From: a bacterium
GTDB lineage: Bacteria > Actinomycetota > Acidimicrobiia > Spongiisociales > JAHEDJ01
DNA: 64,000 nucleotides
Reading direction: 5' to 3'
Assembly: GCA_024641325.1 (NCBI GenBank)
Contig: JAHEDJ010000001.1
Span: forward strand, 23,594-87,593
Positions 26,115 to 57,055 of this stretch are shown piece by piece. The translations under genes and the position numbers were made by a program. The notes beneath the pieces were generated by a model. It was not told where the DNA came from. It saw only the letters and a list, made by a program, of their open reading frames with translations, and made no database searches. Numbering within the stretch: position 1 is the first letter of the stretch; each line of letters begins with the position of its first letter.

Positions 26115-27308
26115 TCATTCGACTATTCCCATCTCCCTACCGGCCGCGGCGAACGCTTCGAGCCCGTGGTCCAGGTCACCGCGCTCATGTGCCGCGGAAA
26201 TCATCACCCGGATCCGGGCCTTGCCCATCGGTACGGTCGGATAGGCAATTGCCTGTGCGAACACTTGGTGGATGTCAAAGAGGCGCTGGGACAACTCTCG
26301 AGCAACCTTCTCATCACCCAGCATCACCGGTGTGATCGGCGTCTGGGTGAACCCCGTATCGAATCCCAGGCTCTGCATTCCCTCACGAAAGCGCCGGGCA
26401 TTCATCCAGAGACGATCGACGAGTTCCGTCGATTCGGAGAGAATGTCCACCGAGGCGATACAGGCGGCAACGTCGGGCGGAGTCGCCGCAGATGAGAAGA
26501 GAAACGGGCGGGCGCGCTGGCGGAGCCAGTCGACGACCGGCTGTGGTCCGGCGACATAGCCGCCGACAACGCCGAACGCCTTCGACATTGTTCCAACCTC
26601 GACTTCGACTCGCCCACTGAGTCCAAAGTGATCGACAATACCTCTACCTCCGCGGCCGAGAACGCCTTCGCCGTGGGCGTCGTCGACCATCACCATCGCC
26701 GCATAGCGATCGGCGGTATCCACGATTGCATCGAGAGGGGCTACGTCGCCGTCCATCGAGAATACGCCGTCGGTGATGACGAGGATTCTCCTCGCTCCCT
26801 CCGCCCTGGCCGTCGCGAGTTGGGCGTCGAGATCGCTCATATCCGCGTGTTTGTATATTTTCCTGGCCGCCCTGGCTAGTCGCACCCCATCGATTATCGA
26901 AGCATGGTTCAACTCGTCGGTCACGATTACATCGCCGGCGTCTACGAGCGCCGGTATGGCGCCCGCATTGGCCACGAACCCGGCCTGGAAGGAGATGGCG
27001 GCTTCAACGCCTTTGAAGGCGGCGAGCCGTCGTTCGAGTTCGTCGTGGATGGTCATGGTGCCCGCGATGGTGCGAACAGCGCCCGGACCGATTCCGTACC
27101 GGTCGAGAGCCGCCTTGGCGGCCGCGATCAGTCTTTCATCGTCGGCCAGGCCGAGGTAGTTGTTTGAGCAGAAGTTGAGGACCCTGCGGCCGTCGACGTT
27201 GATCCAAGCTCCCTGCGGCCCGTCGATGTGACGGATCTGATTCCTGAGCCCCGCCTTTTCCAGGCCCGTCAGTTGCTCACGCAGGTATTCGACCTTGTCC
27301 ACCGTCAC
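26115..27308 (-). CDS. kbl: Glycine C-acetyltransferase (2-amino-3-ketobutyrate CoA ligase)
   Basis: The product is a class II aminotransferase/AONS-family enzyme (NFCSNNYLGLADDE...). A GTG start at 27308 overlaps the tdh stop (GTGA). The ORF-track start at 27362 is probably too long. Confidence 0.8.
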   Translation of the reverse strand: MTVDKVEYLREQLTGLEKAGLRNQIRHIDGPQGAWINVDGRRVLNFCSNNYLGLADDERLIAAAKAALDRYGIGPGAVRTIAGTMTIHDELERRLAAFKGVEAAISFQAGFVANAGAIPALVDAGDVIVTDELNHASIIDGVRLARAARKIYKHADMSDLDAQLATARAEGARRILVITDGVFSMDGDVAPLDAIVDTADRYAAMVMVDDAHGEGVLGRGGRGIVDHFGLSGRVEVEVGTMSKAFGVVGGYVAGPQPVVDWLRQRARPFLFSSAATPPDVAACIASVDILSESTELVDRLWMNARRFREGMQSLGFDTGFTQTPITPVMLGDEKVARELSQRLFDIHQVFAQAIAYPTVPMGKARIRVMISAAHERGDLDHGLEAFAAAGREMGIVE

Positions 27309-28363
27309 TCCAGGGGTCCGTCGGCGTCTTGGGGGTCCGGGAACATGATGACCTTGCCGCACTCGCCGGACGCCATAGTCTCGAATGCTCGATCGAAGTC
27401 ATCGAGGGCATACCGGTGAGTGACAATGGGTGATAGATCGACCGCGCCCGATCGCAGCAATCCCCTCATTTGATACCAATCGATCCAGAGTCGGCGTCCC
27501 ACTATGCCGTAGACGCTGGCGCCTTTGAAGATGACGTGGTCGTCCAGGTTGAACTCGAGTGGGGCAGAGGTCAGGCCGAGCAGCGCAGCCTCACCGCCCG
27601 ATTTGAGAGAAGTGAATCCCTCGTTGATTGCCGAAGGCGCTCCGGACATTTCGAGCAGGACATCGATGCCTTCACCCTCGCTGACGTCCATGATCGTGTC
27701 TACCACATCGCCCGTGGCCGGGTTGACCGTGATGTCGGCACCCATCTGTTTCGCCATTGCAAGCCGGTAGTCGCTCACGTCGCTGGCGATGATGAGCCGG
27801 GCTCCGAGTGCACGTGCAACGGCAACCGCCATGACACCCACTGGTCCACAACCGGTGACGAGCACTTTCCTGCCCGATACCAGTGGAACCGAGGCGGTGT
27901 GCACCGCGTTGCCGAAGTTCTCCTGAAGGGAGGCGATCGAGTAGGGCATGTCGGGCGGATCCGGCCAGGCGTTCGCTGCGGGGACCGCAACGAACTCCGC
28001 ATAGACGCCGTCCCTGCCGACGCCGAGGATCTTCGTGTTCTCACAGAGATGGCCCTTACCTGTGCGGCAGAACGCGCACCGATTGCACACGACGTGCGAC
28101 TCAACTGAAACAAGTTGCCCGATCTCCGGGCCATCTGCTTTTGGGCCTTTGTCGACGACGACTCCGCACATTTCGTGTCCGACGACGATGGGGGGAGTGA
28201 CGTGCGTTTGAGCCCAAGGGTCCCAGTTGCGAATGTGCAGGTCGGTGCCACAAATCGACGTGGCTTTCACCTGAAGAAGAACTTCATCCGGTCCGAGTTC
28301 CGGCATCGGCACATCAATCATTTCGAGACCGGGTTCGGATGAAGTTTTGACGACCGCTCGCAT
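27305..28363 (-). CDS. tdh: L-threonine 3-dehydrogenase
   Basis: The product is a Zn-ADH-family enzyme: MRAVVKTSSEPGLEMIDVPMPELGPDEVLLQVKATSICGTDLHI. I chose the internal Met that aligns with the E. coli Tdh start. Confidence 0.85.
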   Translation of the reverse strand: MRAVVKTSSEPGLEMIDVPMPELGPDEVLLQVKATSICGTDLHIRNWDPWAQTHVTPPIVVGHEMCGVVVDKGPKADGPEIGQLVSVESHVVCNRCAFCRTGKGHLCENTKILGVGRDGVYAEFVAVPAANAWPDPPDMPYSIASLQENFGNAVHTASVPLVSGRKVLVTGCGPVGVMAVAVARALGARLIIASDVSDYRLAMAKQMGADITVNPATGDVVDTIMDVSEGEGIDVLLEMSGAPSAINEGFTSLKSGGEAALLGLTSAPLEFNLDDHVIFKGASVYGIVGRRLWIDWYQMRGLLRSGAVDLSPIVTHRYALDDFDRAFETMASGECGKVIMFPDPQDADGPLE

Positions 28364-28395: not shown

Positions 28396-29004
28396 ATGAC
28401 ATCGCAACCCCGAGGCTGTGGAAGAATGACGGGAATGAGTGTTGAAACAGTATCCAAATTCTTCGCCCTGCTCACGCTGGCCGCCATGGCCGGTGTGAGC
28501 GGCGTGCTGGTGGTCATGTTGACGGCGCGGTGGTCGCCATCCATCGCCCGCTTCAGAGATTCTGCCATCGAGTTGGTGTCACCTGCTGCTCTGTGGCTCG
28601 GGTCGTTCATCGCAGCGGTTTCTATGGCGGGGAGCCTCTACTACTCAGAAGTGGCCGACTTCGCCCCGTGCGATCTGTGCTGGTACCAGCGAATCGCCAT
28701 GTATCCGCTGGCGATCATCCTGGCAATCGCCGCGTATCGCAAGGACGTTGGGATACGACGATACACATACCCTGTGGCGGTGATCGGTGCTGTGATCGCC
28801 ACATATCAGTACGTGCTGCAGCTCAGACCCAGCCTCGAGTCGGGTTTCTGCGGGGTTGATGCATCGTGCACTGAGCGTTACATCTGGCAGTTCGGGTTCA
28901 TATCGTTCCCGTTCATGTCTCTGGTCGGGTTCGCGATGATATTCACACTGCTCTACATCGCAGCCAGGGCGGAGCAGGAGCAAGCAGAAGGACCTAGGTC
29001 ATAG
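28396..29004 (+). CDS. Disulfide bond formation protein B (DsbB/BdbC family)
   Basis: The product carries the BdbC/DsbB motif LYYSEVADFAPCDLCWYQRIAMYP and a second Cys pair (FCGVDASC). There is an extra N-terminal hydrophobic segment, and the start may instead be at 28426 or 28435. Confidence 0.65.
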   Translation: MTSQPRGCGRMTGMSVETVSKFFALLTLAAMAGVSGVLVVMLTARWSPSIARFRDSAIELVSPAALWLGSFIAAVSMAGSLYYSEVADFAPCDLCWYQRIAMYPLAIILAIAAYRKDVGIRRYTYPVAVIGAVIATYQYVLQLRPSLESGFCGVDASCTERYIWQFGFISFPFMSLVGFAMIFTLLYIAARAEQEQAEGPRS

Positions 29005-29028
29005 GTTCCGGGGCGTGGTCCCGGAACC
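29004..29028. terminator. Hairpin GGTTCCGGG-GCGTGGT-CCCGGAACC between convergent genes
   Basis: A perfect 9-bp GC-rich stem is followed by the A/T-rich CAAAATTC. It lies between the dsbB-like stop and the stop of Sec-TlpA gene 1. Confidence 0.5.
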
Positions 29029-29051
29029 CAAAATTCAGAACCCAGGACGAT

Positions 29052-29720
29052 CTACCCCTCGCCGCGCATGAAGCCGATAGCGTTTTCGAGGTCTGCTCCG
29101 GTCAACGGTCCAACATGGCGGGTGACGACGGTGCCGGATCCATCCACGATTACGGAATACGGGAAGTAGACGAGACCGTAGCTCTTCATGGCGGTTCCGT
29201 TCTCATCGTCGACGAGCACCGGGATCGGCCATTCGGCCAGCCACTCGCTCGGCGGATAGCCTTTTTCGGTGGGCCTATTACTGCCTGAAACGCTGACGAT
29301 ATCGATATCGGTCGGCAGGTCGTTGGTGGACCAGTAGCTCAGCAAGTCCGAGACCTCGGACTGGCAGTGCGGTCACCAGTGGGTCAGGAACATGATGATC
29401 TTCGGTCGACCGTCGTTCTTGATTTCGACCGGCGATCCGTCAAAAGACTGACCGCTCAACTCCGGCATCGGCAAGCCGAGTGCAGGGTCTGCACCCTGCT
29501 CCGGCATGGGCACTAGGACACTGCCGATCACGGTCACGGGGCGCGTTTCACTGATGGATGCCGCAGCGGCGGCACCGTCTCCGGGTCCGCCGTCGGATGC
29601 AGTCCCCGGATCATCGGAGCCTGTCAGCAGCACGGCCGCGACCCCGGCGAGCAGCACGAAGGCGGCAGCAACTCCGAAGATGAGCAACGATCGAGTTTTG
29701 GAGGTGTTCTGGTCTGTCAT
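29052..29720 (-). CDS. TlpA/ResA-like membrane-anchored thiol-disulfide oxidoreductase, putative selenoprotein (in-frame TGA at about 29373-29375 read as Sec; active site W-U-P-H-C)
   Basis: Two track ORFs, 29373..29720 and 29052..29345, lie in the same frame and are joined by a single TGA. The joined product reads ...GRPKIIMFLTHW-U-PHCQSEVSDL... and aligns with the TlpA/ResA FWASWCGPC active site, with U at the first Cys. An N-terminal TM helix is present. A SECIS-like hairpin starts 6 nt after the TGA. Confidence 0.7.
29340..29368 (-). promoter_or_regulatory. Putative bacterial SECIS element (stem CUGCCAGUCCGA, loop GGUC, stem UCGGACUUGC)
   Basis: The GGUC apical loop sits at positions 21-24 counted from the U of UGA, versus 22-25 in the E. 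coli fdhF SECIS. The same 26 nt occur in the paralog on the other strand. Confidence 0.6.
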
Positions 29721-29776
29721 GTTCCCCTAATGTGTGCGGACAGATTGTACGTGTGATTGCGGGAAACGAGGAACTG

Positions 29777-30397
29777 ATGGCGAAGTACAAGTCGCGCAAG
29801 CGGAAGCAGAGCATGCTGCCGCTGGCCCTGGGTGTCGTTGGAGCGTTTGCCGTGCTGGCGGTTGTTGCCACCATGCTCAGCACGGACGAGGCCTCGGTTT
29901 ACGGAGATATCACGGTGCGGGGGGAAGGGTTGCCTGCGTTCGTTGCCGGCGCTCCCGATGCTGCGATAGGCCTCGCACTTCCCACCATCGAGGGTGCCGA
30001 TTTCGACGGCAACCCCGTCACGATCTCCGACGACGGTAGACCCAAGCTGATTCTCAACCTGGCGCACTGGTGACCTGTCTGCCAGTCCGAGGTCTCGGAC
30101 TTGCAGCGCTACTTCGATGAAAACGGTTTGCCTTCGGCAGTTGATCTCTACTCGACCTCGATTCTCGTCGAGCCTTCCAGAGTCAACTACCCGCCCGGCG
30201 CCTGGCTGGAGCGTGAAGGGTGGACGCCACCGGTGATCGTGGATGATCGGACCGACTCGGTTCATTCAGCGCTGGGAATGCCAAATGTCCCGGCGTGGGT
30301 TGTCGTGGGTAGCGATAACGTGGTCATTCAGCGAGTAGCCAGCGGCATCACCACGGAGCAGTTCGAGGAACTCGTGGCACTGGCGGCCGGCGCCTGA
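29777..30397 (+). CDS. TlpA/ResA-like membrane-anchored thiol-disulfide oxidoreductase, putative selenoprotein (in-frame TGA at 30071-30073 read as Sec; active site W-U-P-V-C)
   Basis: Track ORFs 29732..30073 and 30101..30397 are in the same frame. The start MAKYKSRK is preceded by an AGGAA SD sequence, and an N-terminal TM helix is present. The product reads ...GRPKLILNLAHW-U-PVCQSEVSDL..., with the TGA at the first Cys of CxxC and a SECIS-like hairpin downstream. Confidence 0.7.
30079..30106 (+). promoter_or_regulatory. Putative bacterial SECIS element (12-bp stem with one mismatch, GGUC tetraloop)
   Basis: The sequence is UGA-CCUGU-CUGCCAGUCCGA-GGUC-UCGGACUUGCAG. The loop G and U positions and the spacing from the UGA are like E. 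coli fdhF. Confidence 0.6.
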
Positions 30398-30474
30398 TCT
30401 CACTTGCAGGATTCAACATGCGGTGCGGTATGATGCCGTCCGCCCGTCTGCCAGGCGCGCCCATTCGGGGGTGG

Positions 30475-30546
30475 TGTAATTGGCAACACAGCAGGTTCTG
30501 GTCCTGTCATTGAGGGTTCGAGTCCTTCCCCCCGAGCGAGCCCGGT
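30475..30546 (+). tRNA. tRNA-Gln (anticodon CTG)
   Basis: I folded the cloverleaf by hand, finding a U1-A72 acceptor TCGGGGG/CCCCCGA like bacterial tRNA-Gln. The D-arm is GTGT-AATTGGCA-ACAC, the anticodon loop is TTCTGGT, and the T-loop is TTCGAGT. Confidence 0.7.
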
Positions 30547-30569
30547 AACGGGCACAAACGGCCCCGTCG

Positions 30570-30643
30570 TCTAGCGGCCTAGGACGCCGGCCTCTCAAGC
30601 CGGTAACGCCAGTTCGAATCTGGTCGGGGCTGCCGCACCGACA
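30570..30643 (+). tRNA. tRNA-Glu (anticodon CTC)
   Basis: The sequence is near-identical to the tRNA-Glu at 23597, with anticodon loop CTCTCAA and T-arm GCCAG-TTCGAAT-CTGGT. Confidence 0.8.
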
Positions 30644-54662: not shown

Positions 54663-55325
54663 CTAGATCCCCACATCGATCAGTAGTCGGTGTGGGCGAA
54701 ACACTGAACGGTTGAGCGGTGACAACCGGGCGAGCGGATGGACTATCACGATGATGTGACGCCCGGCGGCCTTTGCCTTGAGGGCAGCATCGGCGATCCG
54801 GGACGTCGTCCAGAACCGCGACGTCGTACTGGCCACTCCCGGGGCGAGCAATGCCGTCGCTTCCTCGGGAGGTGCAACGGAAATCGGAAAATTGAGATAC
54901 CCGAGACCTTTTGATATTGCCCGCCGGTCGGTGAACAACTGAGCTCGCGAGTTGCCGAGCTGCGAGGCGGCCTCCAGTACGGAGAGAGTCGATTTCCCGA
55001 GCGAGGTAACTCCCATCGACTCATAGTGGGCGACACGCAAGCCGAGATCTGAGCTCCATGTCTCATCCTCGAGTTCCGCGACGGCCAGTTGAAGCGCTCT
55101 TCGGACCCTGTTCGGATCTGGGTCGAGGGCGCGTTCGGTGATGGCCAGCAGAAGCGGTTGATCGGGCCTCCGGGTTCGGAGCATCCTGGCGGCTTCGAGG
55201 CCGGTTTCAATCCAATCTCTTTCGACGAGCTCGAGCAGGCCTTCAGCGGCGCGGAGCGTCGTTTCGACGGGGTCGGACCACTCGTCGTGAGCGGCATCCC
55301 TGAGGAGCTCGAGAGGCCCATTCAT
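54663..55325 (-). CDS. Hypothetical protein
   Basis: This is a 220-aa ORF with coding-like composition. No family was recognised. Confidence 0.3.
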   Translation of the reverse strand: MNGPLELLRDAAHDEWSDPVETTLRAAEGLLELVERDWIETGLEAARMLRTRRPDQPLLLAITERALDPDPNRVRRALQLAVAELEDETWSSDLGLRVAHYESMGVTSLGKSTLSVLEAASQLGNSRAQLFTDRRAISKGLGYLNFPISVAPPEEATALLAPGVASTTSRFWTTSRIADAALKAKAAGRHIIVIVHPLARLSPLNRSVFRPHRLLIDVGI

Positions 55326-55352
55326 CTAGTTGCTTCCAAGCTCTTGATACGC

Positions 55353-56996
55353 ATGGCACCTCCGCGCGTCAACCTAGTCCTCACGATGGTGACGCGCCGG
55401 TCGACATCGAATAGGCTCACAGCGAAGCACATCCCGGAGGTTGCCAAAGTGTTCGAACCGTTCGCCAATGAGCCATATAGCGATTTCTCCATCGACGAGA
55501 ATTCCGCCGCCTACCGCACTGCGATTGAAGGTGTGCGCTCGGAACTCGGTCGCCATTACCCGCTGATCATCGGAGGAGAGGCCATCGATACCGACGGTCG
55601 CATCGAGAGCGTCAACCCCGCCAAACCCTCGGAGGTTGTCGGCACGGTGGCGTCCGCGACGCCGGAGCTTGCCGGACGGGCGATCGAGGCTGCTTGGAAC
55701 GGGTTCGCGGAGTGGTCGGCAATGACTGCAGAAGCCCGTGCCAGAACAGTGATGAAGCTGGCGGCCATCCTGCGCAGGCGCAAGCTGGAGCTATCCGCCT
55801 GGCAGACTCTCGAGGCATCGAAGAACTACCTGGAAGCCGAGGCCGACGTGGCTGAGGCTATCGACTTCGTCGACTACTACGCCCGGCAAGCCCTAACGCT
55901 CGCCCAGCCGGTGGCGGTCACCTCGTTTCCGAATGAGGAGAACGAATCACATCTCATTCCGCTGGGTGTGGGCGTAATCATCCCGCCCTGGAACTTTCCG
56001 CTGGCGATCCTGGCCGGCATGACCATGGGTCCCGTTGCAGCCGGCAATGCAGTGGTAGTCAAGCCCGCCTCGACGACTCCGGTTATTGCGGCACAGTTCA
56101 TGATGGCCGTCGAGGAAGCAGGGTTTCCGGCTGGTGTAATCAACTTCCTGCCGGGCGCCGGCAGTTTGGTCGGTGACACGCTGGTCGACCACCCGCGCAC
56201 CCGCTTCATCAACTTCACCGGGTCCAAGGAAGTGGGGCTGCGTATCGCCGAGCGGTCCTCGAAGGTGAATCCCGGCCAGATGTGGCTCAAACGCGCCTAC
56301 ATGGAGATGGGTGGGAAGGATGCGCAGGTCGTCGATGAGACGGCAGACCTCGACGCGGCGGCCCGCGCCGCGGTAGCAGGCGCTTTCGGTTTTCAAGGCC
56401 AGAAGTGCTCTGCCTGCTCCCGCCTGATAGTCGTCGACGAAGTGCACGACGAGGTTCTGGACAAAGTCGTCCGATACGCCTCTGAACTGTCCATGGGTCC
56501 TGCGACGGAGAACAATCAGGTCACCGCCGTCATCAGCGGAGGCCAGCATCGGACGGTTCTCGAAGAGATCGAGAAGGGCAAGCAAGAAGCGAGACTCGTC
56601 CTGGGAGGCTCGGCCGTCGAGTTGGATGGTGGCTACTACATCGAGCCGACGGTTTTCGCCGATGTGGAACCGGGGCATCGGCTTGCCCAGTTCGAAATCT
56701 TCGGGCCGGTCTTGTCGGTCATCCGTTCCCGCGACTTCGAACACGCCATTGAAATCGCCAACGGAACTGAATACGGCCTGACCGGCGGCGTGTTCACCAA
56801 GCGGCGCGATCGGATCGAGTACGCCCGTCGCAAGTTCCACGTCGGGAACCTCTATATCAACCGGAAGATCACGGGAGCGTTGGTGGCGGTTCAGCCATTC
56901 GGCGGTTTCAATATGTCCGGTTCGAATGCCAAGGCAGGTGGCCCCGATTATCTCCGACTGTTCATGGAGATGAAGACGGTCGCCGAACGCTGGTGA
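55353..56996 (+). CDS. rocA: L-glutamate gamma-semialdehyde (1-pyrroline-5-carboxylate) dehydrogenase
   Basis: The aldehyde dehydrogenase fold has a catalytic Cys in FGFQGQKCSACS and Glu in EMGGKD. The N-terminal region aligns with B. subtilis RocA. The start is uncertain between 55353 and 55386. Confidence 0.8.
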   Translation: MAPPRVNLVLTMVTRRSTSNRLTAKHIPEVAKVFEPFANEPYSDFSIDENSAAYRTAIEGVRSELGRHYPLIIGGEAIDTDGRIESVNPAKPSEVVGTVASATPELAGRAIEAAWNGFAEWSAMTAEARARTVMKLAAILRRRKLELSAWQTLEASKNYLEAEADVAEAIDFVDYYARQALTLAQPVAVTSFPNEENESHLIPLGVGVIIPPWNFPLAILAGMTMGPVAAGNAVVVKPASTTPVIAAQFMMAVEEAGFPAGVINFLPGAGSLVGDTLVDHPRTRFINFTGSKEVGLRIAERSSKVNPGQMWLKRAYMEMGGKDAQVVDETADLDAAARAAVAGAFGFQGQKCSACSRLIVVDEVHDEVLDKVVRYASELSMGPATENNQVTAVISGGQHRTVLEEIEKGKQEARLVLGGSAVELDGGYYIEPTVFADVEPGHRLAQFEIFGPVLSVIRSRDFEHAIEIANGTEYGLTGGVFTKRRDRIEYARRKFHVGNLYINRKITGALVAVQPFGGFNMSGSNAKAGGPDYLRLFMEMKTVAERW

Positions 56997-57002
56997 AATT
57001 GC

Positions 57003-57032
57003 ATGAGGGTGCACCCGGCGGTGCACCCTCAT
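57003..57032. terminator. Perfect 13-bp inverted repeat ATGAGGGTGCACC-CGGC-GGTGCACCCTCAT (bidirectional terminator)
   Basis: It lies between the convergent rocA stop at 56996 and the stop at 57056 of the minus-strand gene. An A-rich tract follows. Confidence 0.6.
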
Positions 57033-57055
57033 AAACGTCACGTGTCGGCCGCAGG

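Follow-up and report, generated by a model that had tools for sequence, protein, structure and literature searches.

At the locus analyzed here, two divergent paralogous genes, termed A and B, each encode a TlpA/Redoxin-like thioredoxin-fold protein with an in-frame UGA codon in the active site motif, followed directly by a short RNA hairpin; a gene for a membrane disulfide oxidoreductase of the DsbB/BdbC family converges on gene A (Table 1). The reading frame of gene A consists of 115 codons, the UGA and 106 further codons, with the Shine-Dalgarno-like sequence GGGGA before its ATG. Gene B, the second case to emerge when every TGA of the window (i.e. the whole 64-kb stretch of DNA that was analyzed) was scanned for open frames on both sides and a hairpin beyond, consists of 98 codons, the UGA and 107 further codons. 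For dsbB, the start may be that given in Table 1 or position 28426, as in the public call of a 192-aa gene.

Table 1. Features of the locus, with positions counted from the first nucleotide of the window.
Feature	Position	Strand	Remarks
dsbB, DsbB/BdbC-family membrane disulfide oxidoreductase	28396..29004	+	Pfam DsbB 6.7e-14; convergent with gene A, directly downstream of it
Gene A, TlpA/Redoxin-like thioredoxin-fold protein, 222 codons	29052..29720	-	In-frame UGA at codon 116; active site W-U-P-H-C (U, predicted Sec)
Predicted SECIS upper stem-loop of gene A, AGUCCGA-GGUC-UCGGACU	29345..29362	-	Nt 14-31 from the U of UGA; loop 29352-29355
UGA codon of gene A, predicted to be read as selenocysteine	29373..29375	-	Homologs have the first Cys of CxxC at this position
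Divergent intergenic region between A and B, 56 bp	29721..29776	.	Presumably holds both promoters
Gene B, paralog of A, 206 codons	29777..30397	+	W-U-P-V-C (U, predicted Sec); predicted membrane-anchored architecture as in A; divergent from A
UGA (predicted Sec) codon of gene B	30071..30073	+	From the scan of TGA codons
Predicted SECIS upper stem-loop of gene B, same sequence as in gene A	30084..30101	+	Loop at 30091-30094, reading GGUC on the coding strand of gene B

A scan for promoter and terminator consensus sequences over 28900-30500 returned no match, including none to the sigma-70 consensus. The 47 bp that separate gene A from the convergent dsbB contain an inverted repeat, GGTTCCGGG-N7-CCCGGAACC (29005-29029), which is without a T-run and was not called by the terminator scan. 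Directly after gene B lie genes for tRNA-Gln(CTG) and tRNA-Glu(CTC) (30465-30634, +); the synteny is conserved, because the same tRNA pair recurs in seven of the metagenome loci with the UGA-containing form described below (L082, L088, L111, L118, L130, L133 and L136). A tRNA-Phe(GAA) called by ARAGORN at 26980-27054 (+), inside an aminotransferase ORF (26115-27362, -), is probably a false positive, the Rfam tRNA model being silent there. Elsewhere in the window, a perfect 13-bp hairpin, ATGAGGGTGCACC-CGGC-GGTGCACCCTCAT (56994-57040, +), is located ~10 nt past the TGA that ends the ORF at 55089-56996, and a split ORF at +43062, considered as a possible FdhA-like selenoprotein, was rejected, the part upstream of its TGA being a non-coding frame.

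Translated across the UGA, the gene A product matches the Pfam families Redoxin (5.2e-09; 36.5 bits, cut-off 26.6) and AhpC-TSA (3.4e-07; 30.7 bits, cut-off 26), as well as Thioredoxin_2, and that of gene B matches Redoxin (3.2e-07) and AhpC-TSA with 30.7 and 27.5 bits, respectively, both above the cut-offs. The nearest solved structures to the gene A protein by sequence are Bacillus subtilis StoA (3ERW, 6.3e-11), followed by 3OR5, 4HQZ, CcmG/DsbE and MPT53 (1LU4). Its best 120 homologs in the database belong to the TlpA family, are 203-259 aa long (mostly 220-226), share at most 53% identity with it and, where the source is named, derive mostly from Acidimicrobiia or other Actinomycetota. At the site of W-UGA-P-H-C in gene A, 119 of these 120 homologs have W-C-P-H-C; the remaining one, for which the JGI translation reads WWQHC, has a TGA in its DNA. 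By this alignment the UGA sits at the N-terminal, predicted attacking Cys of the CxxC motif and forms a classic Sec/Cys pair. Both proteins have a basic N terminus followed by a hydrophobic stretch of ~23 residues, as read from the sequence, and some homologs of the gene A protein have a lipobox-like LAAAC; from their N-terminal sequences, the A and B proteins are predicted to be membrane-anchored and extracytoplasmic. Public gene calls cut both genes at the TGA, into pieces of 115 and 97 aa (gene A) and 98 and 98 aa (gene B), and the 115-aa and 98-aa fragments, with the members of their clusters, are either nameless there or called only 'hypothetical protein'.

The minus strand of gene A reads CAC UGG UGA CCG CAC UGC CAG UCC GAG GUC UCG GAC UUG around the UGA, exactly as described in the earlier note, which had placed a GGUC loop at nt 21-24 counted from the U of UGA. 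Seven bases (AGUCCGA, A14-A20) pair perfectly and without a bulge with UCGGACU (U25-U31), A20-U25 closing a loop of G21-G22-U23-C24 (29355-29352), and the optional lower pairs G11-C34 and C12-G33 can extend the hairpin to 29342-29365. The earlier note had named a preferred fold lacking the GGUC loop as a point against its reading; RNAfold retained the hairpin, in both the minimum free energy and the centroid structures. A 59-nt stretch of gene A folded with -24.5 kcal/mol (z = -2.7), and of the two 45-nt stretches of the window, that counted from the gene A UGA gave -15.4 kcal/mol and the other -17.5 kcal/mol. The description of the element as a minus-strand copy also proved apt, there being an identical plus-strand copy 700 bp off, in the paralogous gene.

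In 200 simulated 64-kb sequences with the dinucleotide content of the window, stems of at least 7 bp closing a GGTC loop occurred on average 1.06 times per sequence, and the same with a TGA 16-37 nt upstream 0.27 times. A GGUC-loop hairpin near a TGA is, by itself, not rare and lies within reach of chance; that of gene A rises above this level because of the reading frame, the Cys/Sec alignment, the second identical copy and the conservation in TGA-containing members of the family. With respect to the second copy, the A and B proteins are 39% identical, and their genes agree at 37% of third codon positions. The longest run of identical nucleotides between the two genes is nevertheless 26 nt and includes the hairpin, the second-longest being the 11 nt of CAC-TGG-TGA-CC at the active site. 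All 8 codons in the 26-nt run are the same, whereas elsewhere only 25 of 66 identical degenerate residues share a codon.

Relatives were sought in a metagenome collection with the pattern CAYTGGTGANNNNNNTGYCARNNNGARRT, which fixes the protein context H-W-UGA...C-Q...E-V/I and leaves free the Ser codon of the 5' arm of the hairpin and the whole of its 3' arm. The scan returned 66 loci, containing 33 in-frame-TGA matches to the TlpA-like family (two loci having two each), 31 of which encode H-W-U-P-x-C-Q-S-E-V-S-D; the divergent A/B pair is also present in two of the metagenome loci (L082 and L088). The 7-bp stem is found in 30 of the 33 sequences and a 6-bp version in one more, and it is absent from two variants (L101 and L124), which are considered below. 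The earlier note had named conservation in TGA-containing orthologs as a check on its reading, and 31 other TGA-containing metagenome matches indeed have the hairpin, with hardly a base changed. Its proposal that the features of the hairpin constitute a signal for Sec insertion, i.e. a SECIS element, is thus supported both by folding and by conservation in TGA-containing relatives.

For alignment, 28 distinct Sec-form sequences were used, comprising the two window copies, one related metagenome gene (L001) and 25 sequences from the metagenome scan; at least six subfamilies are represented. All 28 encode S-E-V-S as TCC GAG GTC TCG, with zero synonymous change, whereas the other invariant residues of the same alignment have synonymous heterozygosities of 0.13-0.63. 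The GGUC loop is likewise present in every sequence, always spaced by 17 nt (positions 4-20) from the UGA. The RNAalifold consensus consists of the 7-bp upper stem only (-9.75 kcal/mol), and in the case of L086, where the core hairpin alone forms in the 45-nt fold, the energy is -9.8 kcal/mol. Changes within the stem amount to one compensatory G-C to A-U replacement, one G-U pair and one A-C mismatch at the stem base; the evidence from covariation comes down to a single compensatory pair because the stem is so invariant. Lower-stem pairs in fixed register occur, depending on the pair, in 9 to 16 of the 28 sequences (about 30-60%); the lower stem is thus present in many sequences, without a common register, and lies outside the consensus.

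The corresponding Cys forms were collected by scanning a genome collection with a pattern built from Cys and Trp codons, which gave at least 80 loci and 79 genes. Among the matches listed, the best stem at the position of the hairpin has 5 bp or fewer in 67 of the 79 genes. In the sequences compared, the hairpin is limited to the TGA-containing members, where it stands in fixed register to the TGA, and the Cys homologs are without it. The two groups also differ in the encoded peptide, Q-S-E-V-S-D of the Sec clade corresponding mostly to Q-K/R-E-V/I-P-L in the Cys homologs. In two comparisons of related sequences, the differences downstream of the UGA were distributed over codon positions 1, 2 and 3 as 12/12/39 and 6/2/23, respectively; because third-position differences dominate, the region downstream of the UGA is translated and under purifying selection.

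Several further sequences deserve mention in their own right. The two TGA-containing relatives without the 7-bp stem, at L124:4461-4489 (-) and L101:54-82 (+), encode HWUPHCQAEVP, like the Cys forms, and their downstream RNA differs, L124 having a hairpin with an AGU loop 23 nt from the UGA and L101 showing no clear loop that starts with G. Either sequence errors or separate conversions from Cys to Sec may account for the two. At L001:958-1590 (+), the JGI translation (protein P0001) has Trp at the proposed Sec UGA (THWWQHC), a call which apparently results from the use of an alternative genetic code on a short contig, and consequently a selenoprotein is masked as an ordinary full-length protein. 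At L035:10854-10900 (+), in a metagenome-assembled genome from Actinomycetes, an ORF encoding FWAPW*TTCQGEAPEV adjoins a Cys-form TlpA homolog; past its in-frame TGA, nt 13-28 from the UGA form the hairpin CAGGGG-GAAG-CCCCUG, and the ORF may be an independent Sec-containing TlpA-like gene.

The published bSECIS model calls for an apical loop of 3-9 nt on an upper stem of 4-16 bp, a G as the first or second nucleotide of the loop, with G or U usually next, a spacing of 16-37 nt from the UGA to the loop, and a free energy of -7.5 kcal/mol or lower (PMC13188914). On all four of these points the A/B hairpin falls within the model, having a 4-nt loop on a 7-bp stem, GGU in the loop, a spacing of 17 nt and an energy of about -9.8 kcal/mol, and both genes also provide the in-frame UGA with an ORF continuing downstream that the model demands. 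In searches of the window with Rfam release 15, only tRNAs passed the gathering score, and nothing was reported at the hairpins even at E-values up to 10. Overall, we consider it highly probable that the hairpins of genes A and B are bacterial SECIS elements.

Components of the Sec machinery were sought around these genes. A tRNA-Sec was called by ARAGORN neither in the window nor in any of 29 Sec-form loci, regular-expression motifs for SelA, SelB and SelD gave nothing convincing in the window and all of the fetched loci, and no sel genes were found in the ~10 kb beyond the right end of the window. Sec machinery has been reported elsewhere in Acidimicrobiia, in Actinomarina of the order Actinomarinales (bioRxiv 10.64898/2026.04.03.716425), and Actinobacteria appear in a list of phyla with a wealth of selenoprotein families (PMC1794560). 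The GltX and pyruvate kinase of the source contig have close relatives that bear the name Acidimicrobiia bacterium, and the organism also occurs in SRR12825429-32.

Other explanations of the UGA and its hairpin have to be weighed against the SECIS reading. It is conceivable that the UGA is read through or recoded without Sec, by near-cognate insertion of Trp or Cys or through reassignment, with the hairpin slowing ribosomes or stimulating read-through. A clearly translated downstream frame would fit with such a process, sequence not identifying the amino acid inserted, as would the W which the JGI pipeline puts at this codon in the related metagenome gene and the negative outcome of the search of the window for Sec machinery. 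However, TGA is the commonest stop codon of the window, where it terminates 13 of the 24 genes and is internal only in A and B, and a change in the genetic code is therefore ruled out. The UGA lies exactly at the catalytic Cys of the CxxC motif, where a Trp would destroy the active site, and the hairpin agrees with every criterion of the published bSECIS model, including the G-G/U loop signature; moreover, its base-for-base invariance is more in keeping with a protein that recognizes a specific sequence than with a generic roadblock. We thus regard non-Sec recoding as quite unlikely. That the TGA is a genuine stop, the genes being pseudogenes or pairs of small ORFs (115 and 97 aa, 98 and 98 aa) and the hairpin incidental, is so improbable as to be scarcely tenable. 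The public calls, in which each gene is broken at the TGA into parts described as hypothetical, accord with such a view, and a hairpin considered alone could arise by chance, but both paralogs, and 31 further matches drawn from many samples, share the TGA and its frame and have an intact domain beyond it. In addition, the downstream part is under purifying selection, a thioredoxin fold cut within its CxxC motif would be non-functional, and the TGA-specific hairpin is invariant.

The conservation of the 18-nt palindrome might alternatively have a different cause, such as a protein-level constraint on SEVSD, a hairpin that acts in regulation or processing, or gene conversion acting on the two paralogs. 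Throughout the Sec clade Q-S-E-V-S-D does not vary, Glu followed by Val or Ile is common at these positions in the Cys homologs too, and the two window copies, being identical, could have homogenized each other. A peptide constraint cannot, however, explain why six-fold and four-fold degenerate sites never vary among the 28 sequences, nor can gene conversion explain the identity across at least six diverged subfamilies from different organisms, and in the sequences compared the hairpin is found only together with the TGA codon and in fixed register to it. A purpose other than Sec insertion for the palindrome is, in our assessment, very unlikely.

On the SECIS reading, SelB carrying Sec-tRNA(Sec) would bind the 7-bp stem and GGUC loop, which begin 10 nt downstream of the UGA, and the in-frame UGA of gene A, likewise that of gene B, would then be decoded as selenocysteine instead of as a stop. 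The product would be a full-length extracytoplasmic, membrane-anchored TlpA/Redoxin-like oxidoreductase, in which Sec, as the attacking residue of W-U-P-x-C, would form a selenenylsulfide with the resolving Cys. We infer SelB binding, the actual insertion of Sec at the UGA codons of A and B, and the direction of the redox reaction from the sequences and their context.

The context of the genes points to a possible partner for their products. The window DsbB scores 121.4 bits against NCBIfam PRK03113, the cut-off being 124. When its protein sequence was compared with all of the fetched loci by tblastn, a DsbB homolog was found directly upstream and on the same strand in 69 of the 79 Cys-form genes (among the matches listed) and in 15 Sec-form genes, and in convergent orientation in three Sec-form genes and the window. 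The window dsbB, being convergent with gene A, is thus not co-transcribed with it. Because linkage to a DsbB homolog is so frequent, the TlpA-like family appears to be a conserved partner of DsbB, and the window DsbB is a probable redox partner of the gene A protein. The role of the A and B proteins is most likely that of a DsbB-recycled partner in extracytoplasmic disulfide formation or exchange, it being solely the gene linkage that suggests an oxidase function. Taking the observations together, we tentatively raise the possibility that A and B belong to a previously undescribed and diversified clade of extracytoplasmic selenoproteins of sediment and estuarine Acidimicrobiia, in which a TlpA-scaffold U-x-x-C protein would serve as the dedicated partner of the quinone-linked oxidase DsbB/BdbC, i.e. 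as a seleno-'DsbA' on a different fold, with a SECIS that is fdhF-like apically and has stayed fixed at every base in at least six subfamilies.

Genes A and B are unannotated additions to the thioredoxin-fold UxxC selenoproteins already known, and the mechanism is not new. Their recognition corrects the annotation of the locus, in which four short 'hypothetical' ORFs become two predicted full-length selenoproteins, and adds, for Acidimicrobiia, a Sec/Cys family that is well supported and has DsbB as a conserved partner; our literature search found only one recent report of selenocysteine use in this class. The A/B family also provides an unusually clean natural case of an RNA signal dictating protein sequence and, if the link with DsbB reflects function, a case in which the use of selenium chemistry for extracytoplasmic disulfide formation could be tested.

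A close known counterpart of the A/B element is the SECIS of E. coli fdhF, for which a 46-nt reference was verified, both listed records being 100% identical to it and annotated as fdhF, and 5413 of 5420 matching records being at least 99% identical. As with A and B, the fdhF SECIS is within the coding region, directly downstream of an in-frame UGA, and has a GGUC tetraloop with an A-U closing pair, a likeness to which the earlier note had drawn attention. SelB contacts G23 and U24 of the fdhF loop, and these have counterparts in G22 and U23 of the A/B loop. The claim of fdhF-like spacing holds approximately: the fdhF loop does occupy nt 22-25, as the earlier note had it and as the verified sequence bears out, whereas that of A and B is at nt 21-24, one nt closer to the UGA. 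The upper stem of the fdhF SECIS carries a bulged U (U17), which is lacking from the perfect 7-bp stem in all 28 A/B-type sequences, and the lower stem is not conserved across the A/B-type family. The host, being of an actinobacterial lineage, and the protein, which is unrelated, differ as well.

With respect to the proteins, prokaryotic selenoprotein catalogues already list thioredoxin-fold UxxC families matching these domain models, namely 'Redoxin family protein' (PF08534, UxxC) and 'Thiol-disulfide isomerase-like' (cd02966, UxxC), which have the same domain model and the UxxC motif in common with A and B. In these families Sec is likewise at the position of the N-terminal Cys, the sources are marine or estuarine metagenomes, and prediction was by Sec/Cys pairing together with bSECIS; the exemplars listed for them are HEU0032618.1 and MGB1650493.1. 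The A/B clade is marked by H-W-U-P-x-C-Q-S-E-V-S-D, a predicted N-terminal membrane anchor, linkage to DsbB and, in the window, a divergent paralog pair. None of the NCBIfam selenoprotein models covers it, the nearest, NF041054 (ResA-like WAxxUGC selenoprotein), scoring 15.8 bits where 300 are required, and the A/B motif being HWUPxC.

TlpA, ResA, StoA, CcmG(DsbE) and MPT53 have in common with the A/B family a W-C-x-x-C type active site, and their membrane-anchored or secreted location is like that predicted for A and B, but they use Cys. The characterized TlpA/ResA-type proteins are mostly reductants fed by CcdA or DsbD, in contrast to the A/B family, which is tied to a DsbB/BdbC homolog. In this regard, the arrangement predicted at the locus resembles that of the BdbC-BdbD and DsbB-DsbA pairs and of the predicted 'DsbA-like' selenoproteins, where a DsbB-family protein is likewise adjacent to an exported thioredoxin-fold partner with CxxC or UxxC; the partner in the A/B family differs from those of the DsbB-DsbA pairs in having a TlpA/Redoxin scaffold instead of the DsbA fold.
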